Below are positions 572-13,112 of a stretch of 64,000 bases of DNA, in pieces. The stretch spans positions 85,732 through 149,731 of the forward strand of contig JBAYVZ010000001.1 of NCBI GenBank assembly GCA_041674285.1, given 5' to 3'. The translations under genes and the position numbers were made by a program. Position 1 is the first letter of the stretch. Each line of letters opens with the position of its first letter. This stretch comes from Minisyncoccota bacterium. GTDB taxonomy: Bacteria > Patescibacteriota > Minisyncoccia > Phycocordibacterales > UBA9973. Below the pieces are notes generated by a model. The model was not told where the DNA came from and searched no databases. It saw only the letters and a program-made list of their open reading frames with translations.

Positions 572-1039
572 ATGCGCTACTGGCTCATAAAAAGTGAAGG
601 GGATTGCTACTCGATAGATGATCTCAAAAAAGACAAGAAGATTGCCTGGACTGGTATTCGCAATTATCAGTCCCGCAATTTTATGATGAATGATATGTCC
701 GTAGGTGATATAGCCCTCTTTTACCATTCCAATGGCACTACTGAGGCACCCACTGGCGTATACGGCATAGCCCGCGTAGCCTCGGCATCGCACCCGGACG
801 AGACCCAGTTTGCAAAGGATGATGAACACTACGATCCCAAGGCGACAAAGGAGAGGCCCATCTGGCACTGCGTAGGCATGGCCTTTGTCCGTAAATTCCG
901 GAATCCTGTGACTCTAGCCGAGATCAAGATTGACCCCGCTCTCGAGGGCATGCTGGTCCGCACCCGCGGCTCCCGCCTGTCCATCCAACCCGTCTCCCAA
1001 AAGCATTTTGAGTATATTGTGGGGTTGACTGACAATTAA
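572..1039 (+). CDS. EVE (PUA-like) domain protein
   Basis: MRYWLIKSEG...IAWTGIRNYQSRNFMMNDMSVGDIALFYHSN matches the EVE/DUF55 N-terminal signature; GC content higher than neighbouring radC. Confidence 0.8.
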   Translation: MRYWLIKSEGDCYSIDDLKKDKKIAWTGIRNYQSRNFMMNDMSVGDIALFYHSNGTTEAPTGVYGIARVASASHPDETQFAKDDEHYDPKATKERPIWHCVGMAFVRKFRNPVTLAEIKIDPALEGMLVRTRGSRLSIQPVSQKHFEYIVGLTDN

Positions 1040-1057
1040 TTATGATATAATTTATTT

Positions 1058-1717
1058 ATGAAATTAAAACAACTTCAAAAAGTTGATTTACCTCGTGAGA
1101 AATTGGCAAAGTATGGTGTTGATAAGTTAAAGGACTATGAGCTATTAGCTCTACTTTTAGGTTCAGGCATTAAGGGGTTGAATGTATTAGAACTTTCGAA
1201 AAGAATTTTAATCTTAGTAAAGAAGGATGGAATAGGAAATATTACCTTAAAAAATCTATTAGAAATAAAAGGTCTAGGTAAAGCAAAAGCATCCCAAGTT
1301 CTCTCTGCTCTGGAACTTAGCAAAAGGTTGAATACTGAAAATCAGATAGAAATACTTTCCTCTTTGGATGTTTGGAATTTCTGTTCTGATATAAGATCTA
1401 CAAAAAGAGAGCATTTTATTGCTTTTTATTTAGATACTCAAAATAGACTAATAGAACGTCAGATTATTTCTATTGGTACATTAAATGCATCACTGGTCCA
1501 TCCTAGAGAGGTTTTTGAGCCTGCTCTGACTTTGCATGCCTCTAGTATTCTTATTGCTCACAACCATCCATCAGGAGAGCTTAATCCATCTGCAGATGAT
1601 ATAGAAGTGACCAGGAGGCTTGTTCAGTCTGGTAAAATAATCGGTGTGGAGATTGTAGATCATATAATAGTCACAAAAAATAGTTATCTAAGCTTTCAGC
1701 AGAAAAATCTACTTTAG
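1058..1717 (+). CDS. radC: RadC-like JAB/MPN domain protein (UPF0758)
   Basis: N-terminal helix-hairpin-helix (LKNLLEIKGLGKAKASQV) plus C-terminal JAMM motif HNHPSG...SxxD; TATAAT lies 6 nt upstream of the ATG. Confidence 0.85.
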   Translation: MKLKQLQKVDLPREKLAKYGVDKLKDYELLALLLGSGIKGLNVLELSKRILILVKKDGIGNITLKNLLEIKGLGKAKASQVLSALELSKRLNTENQIEILSSLDVWNFCSDIRSTKREHFIAFYLDTQNRLIERQIISIGTLNASLVHPREVFEPALTLHASSILIAHNHPSGELNPSADDIEVTRRLVQSGKIIGVEIVDHIIVTKNSYLSFQQKNLL

Positions 1718-1794
1718 TTTCTGTATTTTTAGGGTTAGAAAGACTTATTTTAAGGCCTAGTAAAAGAAGAATTTATAGCATATAATTAGATTTA

Positions 1795-4146
1795 ATGGAC
1801 AAAAAATCACTAACAGAACAAGATATTTGCTCAAAATATATACTACCGGCCATTACAGATAGTGGTTGGGATTTAAAGCATCAAATCCGTGAACAGGTTA
1901 CTTTTACTGCCGGCAAGATTACCGTACGTGGCAAGACTGTTTCTCGTGGAGATCAAAAGCGTGCTGATATTATCTTGTATTACAAAAATGATTTACCGAT
2001 AGCTATCATTGAAGCTAAAGACAATAATCATGGAGTAGGTGCTGGTATGGAGCAGGGTCTTGGTTATGCTGAAGCTCTGGATATTCCTTTTGTTTTTAGT
2101 TCCAATGGGGATGCTTTTATTGAACATGATCGATTTGTGGCAGAGGGGGTTAAAGAAAGAGAAATATCTTTAGATAAATTCCCGTCACCTGAGGAGTTAT
2201 TTGAAAGATATAAAACAGCTAAAGGGATAGATAATAATATCGAAAATATAATTTCTGAAGAATATTTTCAGGAGCTTAAAGGTAAATCTCCTAGATATTT
2301 TCAAAGAGTAGCAATAAATAGAACAGTAGAAGCTGTAGCAAAAGCCCAAAAGCGTATTCTTTTGGTGATGGCTACGGGTACAGGTAAGACGTATACTGCA
2401 TTTCAGATTATTTGGCGTTTATGGAAGTCAAAATCTAAAAAAAGAATATTATTTCTTGTTGATAGAAATATATTAGCTGACCAGACTATGATCAATGATT
2501 TCAAGCATTTTGGAGACAAAATGACGAAAATAGAAAACCGAAATGTTGATAAATCTTACGAAGTTTATCTTGCTCTATATCAGGGGATTACTGGAAACGA
2601 AGAGGAGAAGAATATTTTTAAACAATTTTCTCCAGACTTTTTTGATTTGATCATTGTGGACGAGTGTCACCGTGGTAGTGCAAAAGACGACTCCGCTTGG
2701 CGTGAAGTTTTGGATTATTATTCAAATGCTACACAGATCGGCCTTACCGCTACACCAAAAGAAACAAAAGATATCTCTACTCAGTCATATTTTGGAGAGC
2801 CTATTTATACTTATTCATTAAAACAGGGTATAGATGATGGTTTTCTTGCTCCGTACAAGGTTATTCGAATTATTATCGATCGTGATGTGGAGGGGTATAG
2901 ACCAGAGGCCGGCAAGACAGATAAATACGGCAATGAGATTCCTGATCGTGTTTATAATACAAAAGATTTTGATCGTGATTTAGTTATAGACGAGCGCACA
3001 GAAATTGTAGCTAGAAAAATTACTGAATATATGAAAGAAACAGATCGTATGCAAAAAACGATTGTTTTCTGTGTGGATATAGATCATGCTGTTCGCATGC
3101 GTCAAGCATTAGCAAATGAAAATGCTGATATGGTTGCCGAAAATCGCAAATATGTTGTACGTATTACCGGAGACAATGAAGAGGGTAAGAGAGAATTGGA
3201 TAATTTTATTGACCCAGAAAATCCCTATCCGGTTATAGCAGTCACTTCAAAACTCATGACTACAGGAGTGGACGCTCAAACTTGTAGATTGATCGTTCTT
3301 GATCAAAATATTGGATCTATGACTGAATTCAAGCAAATAATCGGTCGTGGTACTCGTGTCCGAGAGGATTACAATAAAATGTATTTTACTATTATGGATT
3401 TCAGGAGTGTCACAGAGCTTTTTGCTGACCCAGATTTTGATGGTGACCCTGTTGTCGTGTATGAACCAAAAGGTGATGACCCTCTGAGTCCACCTGAAGA
3501 TATTATTGATCCAGTAGAACCAGAACCTGTTATATATCAAAAACCAAAGATAAACATCGGTGGTATTACTATTGGAGAGCCTCGTACAAAATTTTATGTA
3601 AATGGTATCGATGTAAAAGTTATAAATGAGCGTGTTCAATATATAGGCGAAGATGGTAAATTAATCACTGAATCCTTGAAAGATTATTCAAAGAAAAATA
3701 TTTTAAATGAGTATTCATCTCTGGATTCTTTTTTGAATGCCTGGAATCAGAGTGACAAAAAAGAAATAATAATAGAAGAATTAAAAAAGCAGGGTGTATT
3801 TTTTGAAGAATTAGAAAAAGAAGTTGGTAAAAATCTGGATCCATTTGATCTTGTTTGTCACATAGCTTATGGCAAGAAGCCTCTTACTCGCAAAGAGCGC
3901 GCAGAGAATGTCAGAAGGAATGATTACTTTGCAAAATACGAGGGCAAAGCCCGAGAGGTGATAGATGCTCTTTTGGAAAAATATGCAGATACAGGTATTA
4001 CCGCTATAGATGATATTGGTGATTTGCAGGTATCTCCTTTTACAAATTTTGGTACACCAGTGGAGATCGTAAACGAAATTTTCGGGGGGAGAGAAAAATA
4101 TTTAGAAGTTATTAGAAATATACAAAATAGCATTTATTTATGTTAG
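1795..4146 (+). CDS. hsdR: type I restriction enzyme R subunit (HsdR)
   Basis: HsdR_N-like N-terminus, SF2 helicase motifs MATGTGKT (Walker A), DECHR (motif II), TATP, QIIGRGTR; first gene of the R-M operon. Confidence 0.9.
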   Translation: MDKKSLTEQDICSKYILPAITDSGWDLKHQIREQVTFTAGKITVRGKTVSRGDQKRADIILYYKNDLPIAIIEAKDNNHGVGAGMEQGLGYAEALDIPFVFSSNGDAFIEHDRFVAEGVKEREISLDKFPSPEELFERYKTAKGIDNNIENIISEEYFQELKGKSPRYFQRVAINRTVEAVAKAQKRILLVMATGTGKTYTAFQIIWRLWKSKSKKRILFLVDRNILADQTMINDFKHFGDKMTKIENRNVDKSYEVYLALYQGITGNEEEKNIFKQFSPDFFDLIIVDECHRGSAKDDSAWREVLDYYSNATQIGLTATPKETKDISTQSYFGEPIYTYSLKQGIDDGFLAPYKVIRIIIDRDVEGYRPEAGKTDKYGNEIPDRVYNTKDFDRDLVIDERTEIVARKITEYMKETDRMQKTIVFCVDIDHAVRMRQALANENADMVAENRKYVVRITGDNEEGKRELDNFIDPENPYPVIAVTSKLMTTGVDAQTCRLIVLDQNIGSMTEFKQIIGRGTRVREDYNKMYFTIMDFRSVTELFADPDFDGDPVVVYEPKGDDPLSPPEDIIDPVEPEPVIYQKPKINIGGITIGEPRTKFYVNGIDVKVINERVQYIGEDGKLITESLKDYSKKNILNEYSSLDSFLNAWNQSDKKEIIIEELKKQGVFFEELEKEVGKNLDPFDLVCHIAYGKKPLTRKERAENVRRNDYFAKYEGKAREVIDALLEKYADTGITAIDDIGDLQVSPFTNFGTPVEIVNEIFGGREKYLEVIRNIQNSIYLC

Positions 4147-4158
4147 TTTGTATGTATA

Positions 4159-4187
4159 TTGACAATACAAACGAAAAGGTATAAAAT
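4159..4187 (+). promoter_or_regulatory. sigma70-like promoter for fic (TTGACA-17nt-TAAAAT) embedded in an 8-bp inverted repeat GTTTGTAT/ATACAAAC
   Basis: TTGACA at 4159-4164 and TAAAAT at 4182-4187 with 17-nt spacer; inverted repeat 4147-4154/4165-4172 brackets the -35. Confidence 0.45.
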
Positions 4188-4202
4188 GTTAGTATCTATC
4201 GT

Positions 4203-5375
4203 ATGAATACAAACAATAAAAAAACATATTCAATAGGAACTTATAGACCAGAAAAGGATGGGCTTAAAACATTCTTGCCAAATGCTTTTCCTGGTGATTT
4301 TGAGTTTTCTGGGAAGCTTTATAAGAAACAAAGTGAAGCATCTCATTATTTAGGTAAACTTGATGGTATTACAAAACTTTTACCCGATAAAGACTTTTTC
4401 TTGTTAATGTTTATTAAGAAAGACGCTACTTATTCTAGCCAGATCGAAGGTACTCAAGCGACATTTCAGGATGCTGTAGCCGTAGGTGCTTCTTCAGAGT
4501 ATGGAGCTGTTGATGGTAGTGATGTTCATGATATTGTTTATTACATCAAAGCTGTTAATTATGCTATGAAAAGAATTGTAGATTTTCCTCTTTCATTACG
4601 ACTAGTTAGAGAAATTCATGAAAAATTAATGAAAGGTGCTCGCTCAACACAACATGCTTATCCTGGAGAGTTTAGAAATTCTCAGAATTGGATCGGCGCA
4701 CGACTTCCCAAGGATGCAAGTTTTATCCCACCAAATGTTTCTGATATGAAAAATGCATTAGATGAGCTTGAAAAATTTATTCATGCGAAAGATGATTTTC
4801 CAGCACTCATAAAAGCAGGTCTTTTACATGCTCAATTTGAAACCATACATCCATTTACTGATGGTAATGGTCGTACTGGTAGAATGTTGATAACTCTTTA
4901 TTTGCATAAAGCAGGACTTTTGGAATTACCTGTTTTATATCTTTCAAGTTACTTTAAAAAATATCAAAAACTTTATTATTCAAAATTGGCAAGTTATCAT
5001 GATGAAGAGAGTGATATTGAGGGTTGGCTTAATTTCTTTTTAGATGGGGTTGTAGATACAGCACAGTCTTCAATAGAAACATGCGAAAAGATTATTGCAC
5101 TTAGAGAAAAGGATCATGCAAAAATTCAGACACTTGGAGTCAAAACAGCATCTAAAACATTTGAGGTTTTGCAACAGTTATACAAGCAACCAATAGTGGG
5201 TATCGCGGACATAGAAAAATGGACAAATTATACACAGCCAGGTGCCTACAAGATGATTCAGAGATTGATTGATTTAGATATTTTAGAACCATTGGGGGAT
5301 GTAAAGTATGGCCAAAAATATGTTTATACAAAGTATTACAAGATATTCGATTCTGATTTTATAAATAAAAAATAA
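4203..5375 (+). CDS. fic: Fic/DOC family protein (AMPylase-type; N-terminal Fic/DUF4172-like domain, C-terminal wHTH)
   Basis: Canonical Fic motif HPFTDGNGRTGR; upstream inhibitory-helix-like motif SSQIEGT ((S/T)xxxE(G/N)); located between hsdR and hsdM. Confidence 0.9.
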   Translation: MNTNNKKTYSIGTYRPEKDGLKTFLPNAFPGDFEFSGKLYKKQSEASHYLGKLDGITKLLPDKDFFLLMFIKKDATYSSQIEGTQATFQDAVAVGASSEYGAVDGSDVHDIVYYIKAVNYAMKRIVDFPLSLRLVREIHEKLMKGARSTQHAYPGEFRNSQNWIGARLPKDASFIPPNVSDMKNALDELEKFIHAKDDFPALIKAGLLHAQFETIHPFTDGNGRTGRMLITLYLHKAGLLELPVLYLSSYFKKYQKLYYSKLASYHDEESDIEGWLNFFLDGVVDTAQSSIETCEKIIALREKDHAKIQTLGVKTASKTFEVLQQLYKQPIVGIADIEKWTNYTQPGAYKMIQRLIDLDILEPLGDVKYGQKYVYTKYYKIFDSDFINKK

Positions 5376-5376
5376 C

Positions 5377-6807
5377 ATGGCCATACAATCTATAATAAAA
5401 AATATTCAAGACATCATGCGCAAAGACGCGGGCGTAGATGGTGATGCACAACGCCTTTCTCAGCTCGTATGGCTTTTGTTCTTAAAAATTTTCGACGACA
5501 AGGAAAAGGAATACGAGCTCGTTGATACAAAATACATTTCTCCTATTCCAGAGGATCTTCGCTGGCGTAATTGGGCGAGTAATGCCGAAGGCATCACTGG
5601 CGATGAGATGCTAGATTTCATAAACAATAAACTTTTCAAGCAACTCAAGGATCTAAAATTCAATAGCAGTGATGATCCTCGAGGTATGATAGTCAAAGAG
5701 GTTTTTGAGGATACTTACAACTATATGAAGTCTGGCACCTTGATTCGTCAGGTAGTAAATAAAATAAATGAGATAGATTTCAATAGCAAGGATGACCGCC
5801 ATCATTTCAATGAGATATACGAACATTTATTAAAGCAGCTTCAAAATGCGGGCAACGCTGGTGAATATTACACTCCTCGTCCGCTGACAAATTTTATTGT
5901 AAATACCCTTGATCCAAAATTAGGTGAAGATATTCTTGATCCCGCATGTGGTACTGGCGGATTTCTAATCAGTGCACTAGAATACATTCGTAATAGTGGA
6001 GAAATCAAAACTAAAAAAGACGAGACTAAACTTCAAAACCAAATTCATGGTGTAGAACTCAAACCACTCCCACACTTACTCGCTATTACAAATATGATTC
6101 TTCATGGAGTAGAGATTCCACAGCAGATAAAGCGTGGGGACATGCTCTCGCATCCACTTCGTGAATATGGTCCGAAAGATCGCGTGGATATTATAATCGC
6201 AAATCCTCCCTTCGGTGGTAGCGTAAAAGATGGCACTGAGGCAAACTTCCCAGCAGATTTTCGCACAAAGGAAACAGCTGATCTTTTTCTTGTATTATTT
6301 ATGGCATTATTGAAGCCTGGTGGCCGAGTCGGTATTGTCCTCCCAGACGGCTCACTCTTTGGTGAAGGGGTAAAATCTCGCATTAAAGAAAAGCTCCTTG
6401 AAGACTGCAACCTTCACACTATCATCCGCCTACCAGCAGGAGTATTCCAACCATATGCAGGGGTGAATACAAATCTAGTATTCTTTACAAAGGGTCAGCC
6501 TACAAAGGATGTCTGGTATTACCAGATGCCTCTACCAGCAGGAATGAAGCAGTATACAAAGAATCGTGGCATCACAGATGCAGAATTTGAAACTGTGGCA
6601 AAATGGTTCAAGAATAAAAAGGCAGGTGACAATGCATGGAAAGTATCTATCGCTGACATAAAAGCCCGCAATTTTAATCTTGATTTCAAGAACCCAAAGG
6701 GTGGGGAAGTTGAGGAAGAATTGAGTTCAAAGGAGTTGATTAAGAGAATTCAATCTGTCGAAGGTCAAATTACAAATACTTTTAGTGATATTTTGAAGAA
6801 TATATGA
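5377..6807 (+). CDS. hsdM: type I restriction-modification N6-adenine DNA methyltransferase (HsdM)
   Basis: HsdM_N-like N-terminus, SAM motif DPACGTGGFL, catalytic NPPFGG; stop overlaps the next ORF start (ATGA). Confidence 0.9.
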   Translation: MAIQSIIKNIQDIMRKDAGVDGDAQRLSQLVWLLFLKIFDDKEKEYELVDTKYISPIPEDLRWRNWASNAEGITGDEMLDFINNKLFKQLKDLKFNSSDDPRGMIVKEVFEDTYNYMKSGTLIRQVVNKINEIDFNSKDDRHHFNEIYEHLLKQLQNAGNAGEYYTPRPLTNFIVNTLDPKLGEDILDPACGTGGFLISALEYIRNSGEIKTKKDETKLQNQIHGVELKPLPHLLAITNMILHGVEIPQQIKRGDMLSHPLREYGPKDRVDIIIANPPFGGSVKDGTEANFPADFRTKETADLFLVLFMALLKPGGRVGIVLPDGSLFGEGVKSRIKEKLLEDCNLHTIIRLPAGVFQPYAGVNTNLVFFTKGQPTKDVWYYQMPLPAGMKQYTKNRGITDAEFETVAKWFKNKKAGDNAWKVSIADIKARNFNLDFKNPKGGEVEEELSSKELIKRIQSVEGQITNTFSDILKNI

Positions 6808-8189
6808 AACTGCATTCAATTCAAATAAAAAATTATAGAAGCATAGAAGATATTTCTTTTGAGATTATTCAATTAGATGATAAAAGTTTTACATATGGTC
6901 TGATTGGAGTTAATGAGGCTGGTAAATCGAGCATACTTAAAGCATTGTCATTAAAAGATGGATTAGTTCAGACTCAACAAAAAGATTTTCGTGATAAATC
7001 AAAGCCTGTTGAGGTCATTTATTCTTATGAACTTACTATTGAAGAGAGTAATGAATGTAAATCTATTTTGGAGCCAATACCTGATAATTTAATTTTTACT
7101 GATATTTCACTGAAAGCATATTTTTTAATCCAAAATCCAACACAAATAAATCTAGAATTTGATTTATTAAATATAACAAACGAGGAAAAAGCAAAAATCC
7201 AAGAAAAATTACAACAGTTGTTCTTATCTAAAATTCATAAGTCTGTTTTTTGGACAGCGGAAGATAAGTATTTAATTTCACAGCCAATAGATCTTAACGC
7301 TTTTGCTAATTCACCTGAAAATGTTTCGATTCCACTTAAAAATTGTTTTTATCTTGCTGGTATTTTAAATATCCAAGATAGAATAAGTTCTGTTGGTGTT
7401 GATTCTACTGAAATTGAGCAGCTTCAAACTGAACTCGGGGAAAAAGTAACAGATCATATTAAAACTGTTTGGCCAAATCATCCTATAGATATAACTTTTT
7501 TAATAAATAATGGCCAAATTAATTTTCATATAAAAGATGAGGGTGTTTCTGGTAAGGCAAAAACAGCAGATCAGAGAAGTGATGGTTTTAAGCAATTCGT
7601 ATCTTTTCTTCTTACTGTTTCTGCTCAAAATAAAAATGATGAACTTGCTAACTCAATTTTATTGCTTGATGAGCCTGAAACTCATCTACACCCACAAGCA
7701 CAAGAATATTTACTAGGAGAATTCATAAAGATTTCTTTAAATAATAGAAATAATATTGTATTTTTTGCTACCCATTCAAATTACATGATTGATAAGGGAG
7801 ATTTAAGTAGAAACTATAGGATTAAAAAAGAAAGTGGTAAGACAGAAAAAAATAAATTTGATAAAAAAAATTCCACATATGCGAGTGTAACTTATGAAGT
7901 TTTTGACATTCCAAGCACTGATTATCATAATGAGATTTATGGAAAATTGCATGATAGATATCAAGATGCAGATATTTCTGATGAAAAAAGATCTGGAGTG
8001 TTAAATTTTGATACTGGATTTTTGTATTCCGAAAAAGGGATTAAAAAAGATAAACCATGGAAGGGAAATATTAACCAAGCAACCCTACCTACATATATTA
8101 GGAATTGCATTCACCATCCTGATAATGGAGATAAATATAAAGATGTGGAATTAAGAAAATCTATAGAGTTGCTACGTTCTTATTTATGA
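6804..8189 (+). CDS. ABC/AAA_15-type ATPase with C-terminal HEPN-like RNxxxH motif (PrrC/RloC-like candidate anticodon nuclease, or RloA-like restriction-linked ATPase)
   Basis: Walker A GVNEAGKSS; ABC-like D/H-loop LLLDEPETHLHPQAQ; C-terminal ~150-aa extension containing RNCIHH (R-N-x3-H) about 30 aa from the C-terminus; translationally coupled between hsdM and hsdS. Confidence 0.7.
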   Translation: MKLHSIQIKNYRSIEDISFEIIQLDDKSFTYGLIGVNEAGKSSILKALSLKDGLVQTQQKDFRDKSKPVEVIYSYELTIEESNECKSILEPIPDNLIFTDISLKAYFLIQNPTQINLEFDLLNITNEEKAKIQEKLQQLFLSKIHKSVFWTAEDKYLISQPIDLNAFANSPENVSIPLKNCFYLAGILNIQDRISSVGVDSTEIEQLQTELGEKVTDHIKTVWPNHPIDITFLINNGQINFHIKDEGVSGKAKTADQRSDGFKQFVSFLLTVSAQNKNDELANSILLLDEPETHLHPQAQEYLLGEFIKISLNNRNNIVFFATHSNYMIDKGDLSRNYRIKKESGKTEKNKFDKKNSTYASVTYEVFDIPSTDYHNEIYGKLHDRYQDADISDEKRSGVLNFDTGFLYSEKGIKKDKPWKGNINQATLPTYIRNCIHHPDNGDKYKDVELRKSIELLRSYL

Positions 8190-8599
8190 AAAATAAACAC
8201 CAAACCTCAAAAATAAATTTAATCAAAGATTTTAAAATTGCTTTAAAGGATATGGAGCCATATGTAAAAAATCCAGACTATCTTATTAAAGGTAGAGAGT
8301 TTTCTAATTTTTCGTTAAGACCTAGAGAGGCTTGGGCGAATTGGTTGCTCTGTGTTGTTTTGAGAAAACTACATGGTGATAATATAACTTTTGCAGAGGA
8401 TCCCAATGGTGATGGTTTTATTGTTGATAAAAATACAGAAGAAATGATACAAACAGAGCATGTTTCAGCGCTGGAAAACCCTCTTAATCCTCAGCCAAAA
8501 GGAGAAAATAGAATTATAGATGCAATCAATTTAAAAATTATAAAAGGACCCGCATACGCTACTGGTAAATGGTTGGTGGTGTTTTTTGATGGGGCTTAA
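8186..8599 (+). CDS. hypothetical protein (restriction-linked ORF); the frame stays open for 69 further codons after an in-frame TAA (to 8806)
   Basis: 137-aa ORF overlapping the ATPase stop. After TAA at 8597-8599 the same frame has no stop until 8807-8809 despite AT-rich sequence. Confidence 0.4.
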   Translation: MKNKHQTSKINLIKDFKIALKDMEPYVKNPDYLIKGREFSNFSLRPREAWANWLLCVVLRKLHGDNITFAEDPNGDGFIVDKNTEEMIQTEHVSALENPLNPQPKGENRIIDAINLKIIKGPAYATGKWLVVFFDGA

Positions 8600-8810
8600 G
8601 AATTTTTCAGAAATAAAATAAGAGAAAACATAAAAGGTAGACATAATTTTGATGCTGTTTATTGCGTTGGTCTATTGACTGTGGATATAAATAGATACTC
8701 TTATATAGTTTCAGAATTTAAGGACTCTAGTGGAGAAAAATCTATATCTTTTAAAATAGATATTAATAATGATTTTACAGATTGGAACATTAATCAAATT
8801 CTTCAATAAT

Positions 8811-9938
8811 ATGAAAAATAATTGGCAAACAAAAAAAGTCGGGGATTGTTTAGAAAAAATACCTAGTTTGGGTAGTGTATTTAGTAGTCAAAATTTACAA
8901 ATTGGAAATTTTCCAATTATAGATCAGGGTCAAGATTTCATCACTGGGTATACAAATGATAAATCTTTAGTTTTTTCAGATTGTTTACCAGTGATTATTT
9001 TTGGAGACCACACACGAGCTTTGAAATTTATTGATTTTCCTTTTGCTGTTGGGGCAGATGGAACTAAAATACTAAAACCAAAAGCTGAATTTGATCCAAG
9101 ATTTTTCTATTACATGTTGTTATCTTTGGATTTAGGAAGTCGTGGATATGCTCGTCATTTTAAATTGCTAAAAGAATCAGAAATTCCACTCCCACCTCTA
9201 AAAACCCAAAAGGAAATTGTTGCGAAGTTGGGTGAGAAGATGGGGAAGATTAAAGAAGCGAAAAAATTACGGGAAGTGGCTATTGCTGACACTGAAAAAA
9301 TCCTCTCCCAAACCCTCCGCGAAATTTTTGAAGAAGGAAAAGAGAAAGGGTGGGAGGAAGTTTTCTTGAGAGATGTTTCTGAGGTTGTTGGTGGTGGAAC
9401 TCCAAGTACTTCAGTAAAGGGTTATTGGGACCAAACTTACGCATGGGCAACACCTAAAGACTTAGGAAGACTAAATTCGGTTTATATAAATAAGACAGAC
9501 AAAACAATATCAGAATTAGGTTTAAAAAATTCTTCAGCAAAACTTCTGCCTATTGGGTCAATTGTTTTTTCGTCACGTGCGCCAATCGGGTATTTGGCTA
9601 TTAATACTGTTCCTATGGCTACTAATCAAGGTTGTAGAAATTTTGTGTGTTCAGATAAAATAATTAATAAATTTCTCTATTACTCTTTAGTTTTTAATAG
9701 AGAATATATTAAGTCCCTAGGCTCAGGGTCAACATTTGCTGAAATATCAGGTTCAAAGCTAAAAGAAATTATAATATTTATTCCATCTCTTTCTGAACAA
9801 AAGAAAATTGTTACTAGGCTTGATGCACTTTCGGAAAAGATTCGCAAGGCGGTTGAGCTTCAAAAATCCCAGCTAGAGGATTTGAAAAAACTAGAAAAAG
9901 CCTATTTACGAGAAGCATTTAATGGGGAATTAATTTAA
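8811..9938 (+). CDS. hsdS: type I restriction-modification specificity subunit (HsdS), two target-recognition domains
   Basis: Central and C-terminal conserved HsdS helices (LPPLKTQKEIVAKLGEKMGKIKEAKKLRE... and IPSLSEQKKIVTRLDALSEKIRKAVELQKSQLEDLKK); an alternative upstream start at 8769 is possible. Confidence 0.85.
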   Translation: MKNNWQTKKVGDCLEKIPSLGSVFSSQNLQIGNFPIIDQGQDFITGYTNDKSLVFSDCLPVIIFGDHTRALKFIDFPFAVGADGTKILKPKAEFDPRFFYYMLLSLDLGSRGYARHFKLLKESEIPLPPLKTQKEIVAKLGEKMGKIKEAKKLREVAIADTEKILSQTLREIFEEGKEKGWEEVFLRDVSEVVGGGTPSTSVKGYWDQTYAWATPKDLGRLNSVYINKTDKTISELGLKNSSAKLLPIGSIVFSSRAPIGYLAINTVPMATNQGCRNFVCSDKIINKFLYYSLVFNREYIKSLGSGSTFAEISGSKLKEIIIFIPSLSEQKKIVTRLDALSEKIRKAVELQKSQLEDLKKLEKAYLREAFNGELI

Positions 9939-9946
9939 AATAATTT

Positions 9947-10378
9947 ATGTCAAAAAATAAAATTTCAGGAGATATGGGTGAGCAGGAGATTGTAGATTTG
10001 ATCGCTTGTCCTAATTGCAAGAAGAAGTTGATGTTATTACCTAAAAACTACCCATTATTCGATGTGCAGTGTGAGGGGTGTAGTTTTCGTGCTCAGGTGA
10101 AGACAAACAACACAAAGCCAAAGTCTATAATCTTTGGAGCTGGCTGGGATATTATGGAAAAAGTTTTAAAATCTGGATACATGGTTCCACCGCTGATAAC
10201 AAATTTTAAGTGGAGTGATAAGGGTGTGGATCATCAAGAGATTCGATTTTATCCTTTTGTACCGAAGATAAATTTAAAGATGCATCAGCTTTCTGGGGAG
10301 GCAAGACGCGCAAATTATAAAATGTTTAATTACATAGGAATAGACAAGCTTCCTTATTTTGAATTGTTTAAAAAATAA
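9947..10378 (+). CDS. hypothetical zinc-ribbon protein, possibly restriction-endonuclease-like
   Basis: CPNC...CEGC four-Cys cluster; N-terminal GDMGEQEIVDLIA resembles the start of Mrr/PD-(D/E)xK-like domains; directly follows hsdS. Confidence 0.45.
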   Translation: MSKNKISGDMGEQEIVDLIACPNCKKKLMLLPKNYPLFDVQCEGCSFRAQVKTNNTKPKSIIFGAGWDIMEKVLKSGYMVPPLITNFKWSDKGVDHQEIRFYPFVPKINLKMHQLSGEARRANYKMFNYIGIDKLPYFELFKK

Positions 10379-10383
10379 AAATT

Positions 10384-10959
10384 ATGAAAAAAGATATTTT
10401 TGAGCAAATAACAGAAGATTATTTTAGAAAATTGGGTTATTTTACTGTCGGAAATGAAAGATATAAGCCTGCTGGGGTAGGAGTTAATTCTGATATTGAT
10501 GTTTTAGCTATGCATCCACTCAGTAATGATCTTGTGGTTGTAAGTTGTAAAGGGTGGCAATCTGGGATTAATATAAGAGAAATATTAGAAACTCTTAAAA
10601 CAAATCCAGATAAAATTATTCGTGGTGGGACCTTCAGAAAAAGACTCAGAGAAATAGCAGACGAAGACTCAGCCAAGGAGTTAAAAAAGAAAGTTTATTC
10701 TTTAACAGGCAAAGACTCCTTTACTTTTTATTTGTCAGTTGTTGATTATAAAGGCAATAAAGATGATTTTGAAAATTTCTATTTGTTCAAGAAAAACTTA
10801 CCTAATTGTGATATAAAAATTATCACCTTTAGGAATATGATTGAATTTCTAGATTTAAATAAAACCACAACTCCATCACATAGCGATATAATACACATAT
10901 TGCAGTTATTAAAAGCAGCGAAAGGTGAAATTATTTTTAAAGAAATAATACAGCCATGA
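10384..10959 (+). CDS. Mrr-cat-like restriction endonuclease domain protein (PD-(D/E)xK fold)
   Basis: FEQITEDYFRKLGYFTV...GVNSDIDVLAMHP...DLVVVSCKGW follows the Mrr_cat pattern (FE..LV..LL..GY.V..GDGGID..A..(V/I)QCK), here with a (S)CK variant. Confidence 0.5.
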   Translation: MKKDIFEQITEDYFRKLGYFTVGNERYKPAGVGVNSDIDVLAMHPLSNDLVVVSCKGWQSGINIREILETLKTNPDKIIRGGTFRKRLREIADEDSAKELKKKVYSLTGKDSFTFYLSVVDYKGNKDDFENFYLFKKNLPNCDIKIITFRNMIEFLDLNKTTTPSHSDIIHILQLLKAAKGEIIFKEIIQP

Positions 10960-11028
10960 CCCAAAGCCCTGTCTGAGGGGTTTTTGAGCTATTTGCATCC
11001 TTTTTTAAAAGGGATATTATGAGAGTAT

Positions 11029-11703
11029 ATGAAGATTAAGGATATATTCCATAAAATCAAATCCCGTGTTTCTAGGACCCAATTGGGCTTATTTGTGTTT
11101 GCAATTTTGTTTGCTGGTATTGCATTTTTTCTTATATCTGAGAATAGGGATGGAGAATGTTCGCCAGAGTATAAAATACAGAGAAAGTATCTTAATAAAG
11201 ATATGTCGTCTTTGGAATTTAATTTTGATAAATACAAGACCAAAAATTCAAGACCCGAAACACTAAAATCTCTAGATTTAAATTATAGTAAGACAGCTAA
11301 AGAATTCAGAACTAGTATAATTTATCAGCTAAAAGATGAAATTGATTTTGACGGCAAATATACAGTGGTGGGTACTGGCATGACTGGATGGGATGGTCCA
11401 GTATGGATAGTCGACAGATCAAATGGTAAAGCTTATGAATTCCCATATCATCACTATCGTTTTTCTCTTGATTATAGTAAAGATAGTAACCTGATTGTAG
11501 TAAATTCAAAAGAAAGAATAAAAGAAATGCATGAAATTCACGGTTGTTCCTATTTAAACATTATGGAAGATATAGTGAGAGGAGCCTACGATTTAAGGCC
11601 TCATTATTTTGTCTGGGAGGACGGAGAATTTAAATATCTAGGACCCCAGAGCTATACTCCTAATAAAAATCCTTTTTGGGGAGATTATTTTAATAATAAT
11701 TAA
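11029..11703 (+). CDS. hypothetical membrane-anchored protein
   Basis: N-terminal TM helix LGLFVFAILFAGIAFFLI followed by a soluble domain; no recognisable motif. Confidence 0.45.
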   Translation: MKIKDIFHKIKSRVSRTQLGLFVFAILFAGIAFFLISENRDGECSPEYKIQRKYLNKDMSSLEFNFDKYKTKNSRPETLKSLDLNYSKTAKEFRTSIIYQLKDEIDFDGKYTVVGTGMTGWDGPVWIVDRSNGKAYEFPYHHYRFSLDYSKDSNLIVVNSKERIKEMHEIHGCSYLNIMEDIVRGAYDLRPHYFVWEDGEFKYLGPQSYTPNKNPFWGDYFNNN

Positions 11704-11712
11704 ATATTTCTG

Positions 11713-12273
11713 ATGATTCTTAAAAAAATACAAGAAAATTATTATAAAGATTTAAGGAAAGAATATGTTCCGAATAAAATTGACACGGTTTTTATTTTGG
11801 AATCTGTTCCAAGTGCAGATTCATATTTTTATAATATAGAAACTTCAAATAGGACTGTTATTAATACGTTTGCTAGACTATTGAATATAGAAAATCCAAA
11901 AGAATTTACACCCTCTTATATTTTAGATAAATTTGTTAATAAAAATTATATTATTCTTGATGCATTATATGAACCAATTGATAAATTATCTAGCAAAGAA
12001 AGAAGACAAAAAATAAAGGATAATAAACTTGAAATCAAAAAAGAACTTACTAATTTAGTTAAAGATAAAAATATAAAAATTATTCTTGTTAGTAAGTATG
12101 TTTATGAGGAGTTAGCAGGTGCACTCAGAGAAGATGGGTGGAATATTTTAAATAAAGAAAAAGGGGGAATGGTCCCTTTCCCTGGTAATGGATGGCAAAA
12201 AAAATTTATTAGAATAGTTTTAGCATTATTGCAGTCAGGCCCTAGGGTTCTGACTGGTAAGCAAGGACGGTGA
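11713..12273 (+). CDS. hypothetical protein
   Basis: 186-aa ORF, AT-rich, no recognised motif. Confidence 0.4.
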   Translation: MILKKIQENYYKDLRKEYVPNKIDTVFILESVPSADSYFYNIETSNRTVINTFARLLNIENPKEFTPSYILDKFVNKNYIILDALYEPIDKLSSKERRQKIKDNKLEIKKELTNLVKDKNIKIILVSKYVYEELAGALREDGWNILNKEKGGMVPFPGNGWQKKFIRIVLALLQSGPRVLTGKQGR

Positions 12274-12297
12274 TCACTTAAATCTGTAATTAATAAT

Positions 12298-12585
12298 ATG
12301 CTCACTTTTACTCAAAAGGTTTTAAATGTTGTACGGAAGATTCCGAGCGGAAAGACTATGACGTATGGCGAGGTGGCGAGGCGCGCTGGCAGCCCGCGCG
12401 GGGCGCGGGCGGTGGGGACGATTATGAAAAATAATTTCCTGCCGGATGTGCCGTGTCATCGTGTCGTTCCCACTACGCCTCTGGCTACGCGGGACAGAGC
12501 CCTGAGTGTAAAAACCGTCGGCGCGTACAATCGCGGCGGCCCGGAGGCGAAATACGCTTTACTTAAAAAGGAGGGTGCTATTTGA
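12298..12585 (+). CDS. methylated-DNA-protein-cysteine methyltransferase (MGMT/Ogt) DNA-binding/active-site domain protein
   Basis: TMTYGEVARRAGSPRGARAVGTIM...VPCHRVV matches the MGMT C-terminal domain with the PCHR active site retained; strikingly GC-rich (e.g. GCGCGCTGGCAGCCCGCGCGGGGCGCGGGCGGTGGGGACG). Confidence 0.75.
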   Translation: MLTFTQKVLNVVRKIPSGKTMTYGEVARRAGSPRGARAVGTIMKNNFLPDVPCHRVVPTTPLATRDRALSVKTVGAYNRGGPEAKYALLKKEGAI

Positions 12586-12599
12586 TATAATAAAAACAT

Positions 12600-13112
12600 A
12601 TGAAAAAATATTATATTACAGGAATGGCGGGCAGTGGAAAATCTACAATAGCTAGAATGCTGACTCAAAATAATATTAGAGCTATAGATATTGATGATCA
12701 TGATTTATCTCGATGGGTCAATAAAGAAACTGGAGAGGTTGTGCAGAGGCAGCCCGGTGCGGATAAATATTTTTTCAAGAATAATGCTTCTGCTCTAGAT
12801 ATCGAAAGACTATTTAAAATGATAGAGGAGATGGAGGGTCCTGTCTTTGTAGTAGGGTTAGCAGACAATCAAAAAGACTTTATAAATAAATTTGATAAAG
12901 TATTTTTGCTCAGATGTCATCCGAGTGCACTTATTCAGAGGATCAATAGTAGGAATGACAATAGTTTTGGCAAGGACGAAGAAGCTAGAAATATGATAAT
13001 ACGTGGAAATGAGAAATTTGAAAATAAGATGATGGATCTGGGTGCTATACCCATAGACACATCTATGCCCATAGATAAGGTATATGAGGAATTGATGTCT
13101 CAGACGAAATAA
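12600..13112 (+). CDS. P-loop NTPase / nucleotide-kinase-like protein
   Basis: Walker A GMAGSGKST near the N-terminus; small kinase-like size. Confidence 0.6.
   Translation: MKKYYITGMAGSGKSTIARMLTQNNIRAIDIDDHDLSRWVNKETGEVVQRQPGADKYFFKNNASALDIERLFKMIEEMEGPVFVVGLADNQKDFINKFDKVFLLRCHPSALIQRINSRNDNSFGKDEEARNMIIRGNEKFENKMMDLGAIPIDTSMPIDKVYEELMSQTK

Follow-up and report, generated by a model that had tools for sequence, protein, structure and literature searches.

A type I restriction–modification (R-M) locus on contig JBAYVZ010000001.1 of a Candidatus Paceibacterota metagenome-assembled genome (MAG) carries a series of additional genes between and behind its hsdR, hsdM and hsdS genes, and lies on the plus strand of the 64,000-nucleotide stretch of DNA analysed here, hereafter the window, to which the coordinates given below refer. 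The reading that we favour, and which is probably correct although well short of certain, is that an intact R-M scaffold houses defence modules that are exchanged independently of one another at recurrent positions, and that these would act together through the mechanism proposed later in this text. The modules are a self-contained SoFic-type cassette (operator, promoter and fic) adjoining hsdR; an ABC ATPase that has an RNxxxH domain at its C-terminus and begins on the ATGA ending hsdM; a variable slot running from the ATPase to hsdS, here filled by a 207-amino-acid (aa) gene with a nonsense codon; and a four-gene variable block past hsdS with DpnI-like and Mrr-like nucleases. The original prediction, made from the sequence alone, had described a composite defence island with embedded cargo, and this description is upheld by the recurrence of the same cargo positions in unrelated loci and by sibling genomes that swap cargo at exact boundaries.

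Exchange of cargo between sibling genomes

Two sibling genomes, L121 (GCA_018061145.1) and L122 (GCA_020047435.1), are 95.2% identical to the window over positions 578–6807, and their homology to it ends exactly at the hsdM stop codon. The more distant L126, which has the same RadC–hsdR–Fic–hsdM backbone, contains a third, unrelated gene in the slot, and in each of the three genomes the cargo gene begins with an ATG that overlaps the TGA of hsdM (...AATATATGA). Only the central (9180–9348) and C-terminal (9781–9942) conserved regions of hsdS align with the sibling gene, so the target recognition domains (TRDs) differ from those of the sibling, and a blastn comparison of the window with L121 found no homology from 9943 to 12306, with synteny returning at 12307. 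A cargo-free hsdRMS was also sought among the sibling genomes and none was found.

The slot in L121 (12602–14059) holds a 485-aa DUF8370/DUF8371 protein (phrog_30194, 1.3e-72), which replaces the ATPase and the 207-aa gene and is a candidate for another embedded defence gene.

The R-M scaffold and its packing

Profile matches and motifs show this Candidatus Paceibacterota locus to be, as predicted from the proteins that it encodes, an intact type I R-M system of the EcoAI family. The restriction subunit gene hsdR (1795–4146, plus strand; 783 aa), of the EcoAI/type IB family, scores 1185 bits against the EcoAI-family model NF046051 (cut-off 550) over residues 6–781 of 783, with further matches to PADLOC REase_I (1164 bits), ResIII and EcoEI_R_C, and its product displays PD-(D/E)XK, Walker A (ATGTGKT) and DEAH-like (VDECHR) motifs. 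The product of hsdM (5377–6807, plus strand; 476 aa), which starts 1 nt past the fic stop, matches N6_Mtase (1.6e-71), HsdM_N and PADLOC MTase_I (660 bits), and contains the S-adenosylmethionine-binding motif DPACGTGGF and an NPPF motif (ANPPFGG). Two TRDs are encoded by hsdS (8811–9938, plus strand; 375 aa), which matches Methylase_S (8.6e-41) in two stretches and PADLOC Specificity_I (228 bits) over positions 13–388 of 389; the open reading frame (ORF) is open from 8769, and its likely start is the ATG at 8811, judging from the match to the HsdS N-terminus of L121. The HsdR nuclease and SF2 motor motifs, the HsdM motifs and the two-TRD HsdS that characterise the EcoAI/type IB family are all present.

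The ORFs of the original prediction were found where it had placed them, all on the plus strand, and profile searches on each protein backed every label that it had assigned, save those of HEPN and the ‘small ORF’. Housekeeping families and inactivated hsd genes, which it had named as outcomes that would speak against it, did not appear, as no embedded gene gave a housekeeping match and each hsd gene has its full length and its motifs intact; its mention of a minimal genome is likewise consistent with the Candidatus Paceibacterota source. The 4-nt overlaps that it reported at 6804 and 8186 are real, whereas its gaps of 1–12 nt throughout do not hold, the hsdR–fic gap being 56 nt, and neither does the tight spacing between the small ORF and hsdS, because an in-frame TAA at 8597–8599 interrupts the 207-aa gene and, as the sequence stands, the small ORF stops 169–211 nt upstream of hsdS. 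Since the plus strand carries almost every long ORF in 199–42822, co-orientation is weak evidence here, and it is the overlaps and the 1–8-nt spacings, not the common strand, that constitute the evidence for an operon. Co-regulation of the cargo with restriction, as read from this gene spacing, would be the expected consequence. The cargo genes have a G+C content of 0.27–0.30, compared with 0.40 for hsdM and 0.38 for the remainder of the window, and scans for tRNAs and against Rfam gave no match near the locus.

Directly 5′ of hsdR, positions 572–1717 of the window encode a RadC/JAB protein and one with an EVE domain, which is PUA-like and reads modified bases; both genes are kept upstream of hsdR in L121 and L122, and RadC also in L126, and they may be part of the same island. 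A separate observation concerns TRD2 of the window hsdS (9518–9769), which resembles TRD1 of hsdS in the type I locus L015 (10803–11054) with 70% nucleotide identity and, from this likeness, would be an example of TRD shuffling between positions.

An ABC ATPase at the hsdM–hsdS junction

The ABC-type ATPase gene (6804–8189, plus strand; 461 aa) begins with an ATG that overlaps the hsdM TGA and encodes an AAA_15/AAA_21 protein with an SMC/Rad50/OLD/PtuA-like head. At E<=0.01 its only matches are to AAA_15, AAA_21, DUF2813, AAA_27 and SMC_N, and its Walker A and Walker B motifs read GVNEAGKS and LLLDEPE. The C-terminal domain (about 352–461, the last ~110 residues) is family-specific and mainly helical, with conserved DYHNE and RNCIHH motifs, in which R433, H437 and H438 are found in at least 90% of the family sequences and N434 is invariant; R433...H438 (Rx4H) fits the HEPN Rx4–6H signature, including the usual polar residue following the arginine. 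A profile search of 1.84 billion representatives with this domain returned 719 proteins (clusters at 50% identity), the domain is C-terminal in all 150 matches listed, and 10 out of 10 proteins that were scanned carry this ATPase. No match to the ATPase was found by tblastn against plasmids.

The genomic context of the family was sampled in 80 metagenomic loci and three looked up individually, about 25 of which were informative at 42–64% identity, and in 16 of these the ATPase is located directly after hsdM and/or before hsdS. The gene order of the window is reproduced in L061, i.e. hsdR (59% identical)–Fic–hsdM (63%)–ATPase (53%)–135-aa gene–hsdS, and a related arrangement, hsdM–ATPase (64%)–HEPN–195 aa–hsdS–Fic (56%)–hsdR, occurs in L009, the hsd genes of which are just 35–38% identical to those of the window. 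The comparison of hsdM–hsdS cargo with that of related genomes, which the original prediction had put forward as a check, thus shows unrelated type I loci to have the same cargo types in matching places. In the majority of loci hsdS follows the ATPase with no gene in between; five loci have extras there, namely the 207-aa gene in the window and, in the other four, a 135-aa ORF, a beta-flower protein, a PF05168 HEPN protein, and a C39-like peptidase together with a membrane protein. GmrSD, HNH and other R-M genes are also found next to distant ATPase relatives.

In L054 (3692–7590) and L073 (2803–6407), ATPase relatives of 39–45% identity were seen right behind an EcoRI-like methylase and a 368–390-aa gene, and by gene size the same holds for L074–75; as distant relatives adjoin these EcoRI-like methylase pairs, the ATPase family is linked to type II R-M pairs too.

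These arrangements could in principle arise by pure hitch-hiking, with the operon serving as a recombination-prone landing pad and the Fic, ATPase, 207-aa and nuclease-like genes being autonomous and without functional link to restriction, an explanation that we regard as possible but clearly less probable than the modular one. It draws on the exchange of cargo between 95%-identical backbones, the finding of the ATPase alone elsewhere, the fic cassette outside R-M loci (L124, see below) and the habit of the 207-aa family of trailing AbiU2, SIR2-HerA, RNase H-like, MvaI/BcnI and RecQ genes. However, the ATPase is position-specific, being found directly after hsdM in 16 loci across at least two hsd families that are 35–38% identical, and the ATGA docking at the hsdM stop is kept by three unrelated cargos, which is more order than random insertion predicts.

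A different explanation is that the ATPase is no separate cargo but belongs, as an additional integral subunit, to a modified methylation-based system of several genes, of the MADS or Hma kind, as PADLOC and NCBIfam matches of hsdM, the ATPase and hsdS to mad2, mad3 and mad5 might suggest. This is very improbable, given that the MADS scores are all far under the curated cut-offs (111 versus 720, 23.6 versus 420 and 26 versus 400 for mad2, mad3 and mad5, on which grounds MADS membership was rejected), that siblings with the same hsdR and hsdM carry unrelated genes in place of the ATPase, and that canonical type I models cover the hsd genes at full length.

Several other family assignments of the ATPase were also considered and set aside. 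It gives no AAA_13 match at E<=0.01, which excludes it from the PrrC family as such; matches to Hma and AbiL are partial or sub-threshold, and the partner genes are absent; and neither it nor its neighbours have the Toprim (or DUF4435) domain of PARIS, OLD or Gabija.

A portable Fic cassette

Between hsdR and hsdM lies fic (4203–5375, plus strand), encoding a 390-aa SoFic-type class II Fic protein with Fic_N and Fic matches and a PADLOC SoFic match of 2e-107 over residues 20–383. It contains the inhibitory motif SSQIEG, of the (S/T)xxxE(G/N) type, and the active site HPFTDGNGRTGR, of the HxFx(D/E)GNGRxxR type, and residues 50–383 align by phmmer to the SoFic structures 3EQX, 3ZCN and 9TCH, including the winged helix-turn-helix (wHTH) region. 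Against the SoFic NCBIfam equivalog, which represents strict orthology, it scores 150.6 bits and misses the cut-off of 550.

Upstream of the gene and extending just into it is a promoter/operator region (4146–4214, plus strand), in which a left arm, GTTTGTAT (4146–4153), and a right arm, ATACAAAC (4165–4172), flank the −35 box TTGACA (4159–4164), followed after a 17-nt spacer by the −10 box TAAAAT (4182–4187), and a third copy of ATACAAAC (4207–4214) is found right behind the fic ATG. Three of the eight copies of this 8-mer in 64 kb cluster within these 69 nt, and TTGACA-17-TAAAAT (4159–4187) is the top promoter-like site in 1000–13000, scoring 11/12. Both arms and both hexamers are invariant across five loci (the window, L121, L126, L124 and L009), with spacers that vary. 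In L124, which lacks R-M genes, a helicase-like gene unrelated to R-M precedes the Fic gene, and the homology of this locus to the window is limited to the stretch from 4144, at the left arm, through the fic stop, indicating that operator, promoter and fic travel together as a single cassette. In L061 and L015, where the Fic genes belong to other subfamilies, these genes have near-perfect promoters of their own, surrounded by different repeats.

SoFic has been reported to be enriched in small-genome lineages, Patescibacteria included. As a 2026 preprint shows, dimeric SoFic binds in a specific manner to the 100 bp that precede its own start codon, and it AMPylates EF-Tu (bioRxiv 10.64898/2026.07.09.737422). 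An internal fic promoter with an 8-bp inverted repeat as its operator had been proposed for the window from the outset, and its conservation in five loci, together with the published binding of SoFic to its own promoter, speaks for this proposal. As hsdM begins 1 nt after fic, the genes from hsdM through hsdS probably depend on the fic promoter; in L009 and L015 a cassette of the same kind heads hsdR instead.

Like SoFic and CccR, the protein described here is a class II Fic with a wHTH, sharing domain order, active-site motif, inhibitory helix and end-to-end alignment with the SoFic structures, and its palindromic site, within 60 nt of the start codon, is in line with the published binding of SoFic to its own promoter. 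It differs from both in that the cassette also heads the hsdM...hsdS genes and in having no AS1-like small antitoxin gene downstream, for which the start of hsdM 1 nt after fic leaves no place.

In L009, a spacer of ~350 nt (11802–12150) between hsdS and the fic promoter is G+C-rich and repeat-laden in an otherwise A+T-rich locus.

The 207-aa gene and its in-frame stop

Between the ATPase and hsdS lies a gene of an unannotated family (8186–8809, plus strand) that had been described as a small ORF and annotated as 137 aa (8186–8599), for the product of which profile searches found no family. It is not a gene of its own, as the frame runs on past a single TAA (8597–8599, codon 138) to a stop at 8807–8809, 1 nt before the hsdS ATG at 8811. 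Homologues of the read-through product are 200–210 aa long and 60–79% identical over 95–100% coverage; they have Gly, Glu or Asp at the position of the stop, and no invariant family residue downstream of it has been lost in the window. A second assembly from the same population (L040, from ENA) matches the window over 13,386 bases except at two positions, namely a synonymous change in fic (4481) and a G for T at 8597, which converts the stop to GAA (Glu) and yields an intact 207-aa ORF. Records of the intact allele come from ENA and Logan, and that of the truncated one comes from the JGI/NCBI MAG.

The nonsense codon could be taken to mark inactivation, with the R-M system and its cargo becoming remnants, and other decayed copies of the gene (L038 frameshifted, L037 and L039 truncated) lend this some colour beyond the in-frame TAA itself. 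Such general decay is nevertheless highly unlikely, since a single gene is affected and all others are full length, every invariant family residue is kept after the stop, and an intact allele occurs in two other sources (ENA and Logan). The decayed copies, at 2210–2799 in L038, 9998–10489 in L037 and 2049–2351 in L039, show that loss of the 207-aa gene itself is recurrent. A terminator-like hairpin with a T-run (8556–8582) was also noted inside the ORF, shortly before the nonsense codon (8597).

The family is almost exclusively found in Patescibacteria, where in ~14 of 24 loci the homologue lies a few bases behind a co-oriented gene. The preceding genes encode HEPN_AbiU2, SIR2-HerA, RNase H-like, MvaI/BcnI and RecQ proteins and methylases, and this variation identifies the 207-aa family as a resident of defence islands. 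One such homologue, preceded by an RNase H-like gene, belongs to the type I operon of L015 (hsdM–281aa–207–hsdS–Fic–hsdR). The AF2 model of the protein (pLDDT 87.7) has structural neighbours that are nuclease-like but weak, and a Foldseek search of the model against the PDB gave nothing significant. A fold of the PD-(D/E)XK nuclease superfamily, with a D...(D/E)xK site, was considered for it and is at most a possibility.

An obligate partnership with the ATPase was rejected, as the gene is absent next to most embedded ATPases and members of its family trail many different genes. Co-transfer of the cargo with TRD1 of hsdS was not supported, as TRD1 of L015 resembles TRD2 of the window and, past the 207-aa gene, just the first ~35 nt of hsdS align. 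In L004, L018, L019 and L024, a HEPN_AbiU2 gene is followed 2 nt later by a 207-aa homologue, a pair that recurs in several candidate phyla and may form an independent two-gene module.

The variable block downstream of hsdS

Downstream of hsdS, a variable four-gene block (9943–12306, plus strand), absent from the sibling L121, encodes a DpnI-like protein, an Mrr-like protein, orf224 and orf186. The two nuclease-like genes that the original prediction placed behind hsdS are therefore present, but they belong to this separate block and not to the core of the hsd operon. The first (9947–10378, plus strand; 143 aa) encodes a DpnI-family protein with a CxxC...CxxC zinc ribbon, which consists of the catalytic domain only and ends before the C-terminal winged-helix domain; it matches positions 21–152 of the 183 in PF06044 (4.2e-10, 40 bits versus a gathering score of 26.7) and PADLOC mREase_II (3.9e-5), with no phmmer match to DpnI structures. 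The second (10384–10959, plus strand; 191 aa) encodes an Mrr_cat/NERD-like protein with D37/D39 ... S54-C-K56 in its N-terminal 70 aa. Neither orf224 (11029–11703, plus strand), which has an N-terminal hydrophobic segment, nor orf186 (11713–12273, plus strand) gave a significant family match. Comparison of the DpnI-like, Mrr-like and 207-aa proteins with PDB sequences returned just spurious matches, a PHROGs search of the cargo genes was uninformative, and homologues of the DpnI-like and Mrr-like proteins were found in none of the comparison loci.

Relation to known embedded systems

The class of arrangement described here is already known. PrrC, encoded in EcoprrI, is an R-M guardian that is activated when Stp inhibits the enzyme, and PARIS is likewise an established R-M guardian (PMC12707154). 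The Campylobacter rlo genes and TgvAB in VPI-2 of V. cholerae are further genes embedded in type I R-M loci (PMC11411939), and a survey of ‘guilt-by-embedding’ left over half of the genes embedded in type I R-M unexplained (bioRxiv 10.1101/2024.01.29.577857).

In common with PrrC of the EcoprrI type IC locus, and with RloC, the protein combines an ABC-type ATPase with a putative C-terminal effector domain bearing an Rx4–6H-type motif and is encoded inside a type I R-M operon, as the family is in most informative cases. Unlike PrrC, it is of the AAA_15/AAA_21 type without AAA_13, its C-terminal domain matches no known HEPN profile, and its position is hsdM–X–hsdS where that of PrrC is hsdS–prrC–hsdR. 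Campylobacter rloA–H and AbiL (AbiLi/AbiLii) also comprise restriction-linked ORFs, ATPases included, between hsd genes, and the ATPase matches the PADLOC AbiLi model at 9e-20; here, however, there is no RloB/AbiLii (Toprim-like) partner gene and the putative effector is fused to the ATPase. PARIS (AriA/AriB), OLD, Gabija GajA and Septu PtuA differ in their Toprim, HNH or DUF4435 partners or domains, none of which is found here, and their sequence matches span just parts of the ATPase head.

TgvAB of Vibrio cholerae VPI-2 and the HEC/PDC candidates (Payne et al. 2024) provide the same general picture of defence genes inside a type I R-M operon, with layers presumed to be complementary. The cargo families of the present locus are different ones, in that its ATPase, 207-aa and Mrr-like proteins have no specific PADLOC model, and base-exact replacement of cargo is documented here in sibling genomes. 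Two of the inserted gene families are undescribed, and what is new comprises the ATPase family with its positional preference, the base-exact slot, the portable operator-controlled Fic cassette heading hsd genes and the unannotated 207-aa family. A guardian role for the ATPase and control of the hsd genes by Fic are plausible and testable proposals.

Proposed mechanism and points against it

In the mechanism that we propose as part of the modular reading, a dimer of Fic would bind, through its wHTH, the GTTTGTAT/ATACAAAC inverted repeat, such that the fic promoter would probably be autoregulated, and this promoter would transcribe fic–hsdM–ATPase–207–hsdS as a single translationally coupled unit. 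The R-M enzyme would cut unmethylated DNA, and Fic may serve as a toxin for abortive infection in the way published for SoFic, which AMPylates EF-Tu. The ATPase is most likely PrrC-like and would be kept inactive beside the HsdM/HsdS core until a phage inhibits the R-M enzyme, upon which it would release its C-terminal nuclease activity, and the nuclease-like genes may add restriction against modified or other DNA. We infer from these likenesses that the ATPase is a candidate PrrC-like guardian.

Several observations weigh against this reading. Homologues of the ATPase exist without any R-M neighbour, in L008 (Methylotenera), L011 and L044, so its coupling to R-M is not obligatory. The original prediction had called the protein an ATPase-HEPN; the ATPase half of this name stands, and the HEPN half reflects the conserved RNxxxH motif, with no profile match. 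An alignment of the C-terminal domain matched no HEPN profile or solved structure in Pfam and PDB searches, a HEPN assignment by profile being rejected on these grounds, and hhalign comparisons with HEPN proteins were non-significant; one of them sets the motif and the next helix in register with a PF05168 HEPN protein, at a probability of just 5.9%. The additional conserved His, Cys, Asp and Glu residues of the domain could instead point to a metal-binding bundle. Promoter-like matches are not enriched as a class (45 found versus 49 expected), and a second sigma-70-like site scoring 11/12, TTGACA-17-CATAAT (7903–7931), is located inside the ATPase gene; as these statistics are weak, it is the comparative evidence that carries the claim of a fic promoter. 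Finally, the 207-aa gene is truncated in this assembly and the Mrr_cat match is marginal (PF04471 6.5e-5, 23.5 bits versus a cut-off of 21; NERD 0.067).

The site at 7903–7931 lies ~255 nt upstream of the 207-aa gene and may be a promoter internal to the operon or have arisen by chance.

A bolder version of the proposal, which is only tentative and perhaps doubtful, would see in the ATPase (AAA_15/21, RNxxxH) an undescribed and widespread guardian family (719 clusters) that docks translationally on the methyltransferase gene in R-M systems of type I (and, in some cases, type II) and fires upon inhibition of R-M; in the hsdM–hsdS junction a dedicated cargo-exchange slot; and in the wHTH-Fic a C-protein-like transcriptional controller of the hsd genes.

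Significance for defence in Patescibacteria

Genes for defence that lie within type I R-M operons have proved to be a source of new immune systems, with PrrC, TgvAB and the HEC/PDC candidates as examples. The ATPase family is uncharacterised and very common, and with its strong preference for the hsdM–hsdS junction it can be tested as a sensor of anti-restriction proteins. That three unrelated genes begin at the same ATGA in near-identical backbones constitutes natural evidence for a cargo slot, and the portable Fic cassette, found at the head of hsd genes in several lineages, points to the possibility that R-M expression is set by a toxin-regulator. Genome-reduced Patescibacteria thereby pack several layers of defence into about 10 kb.

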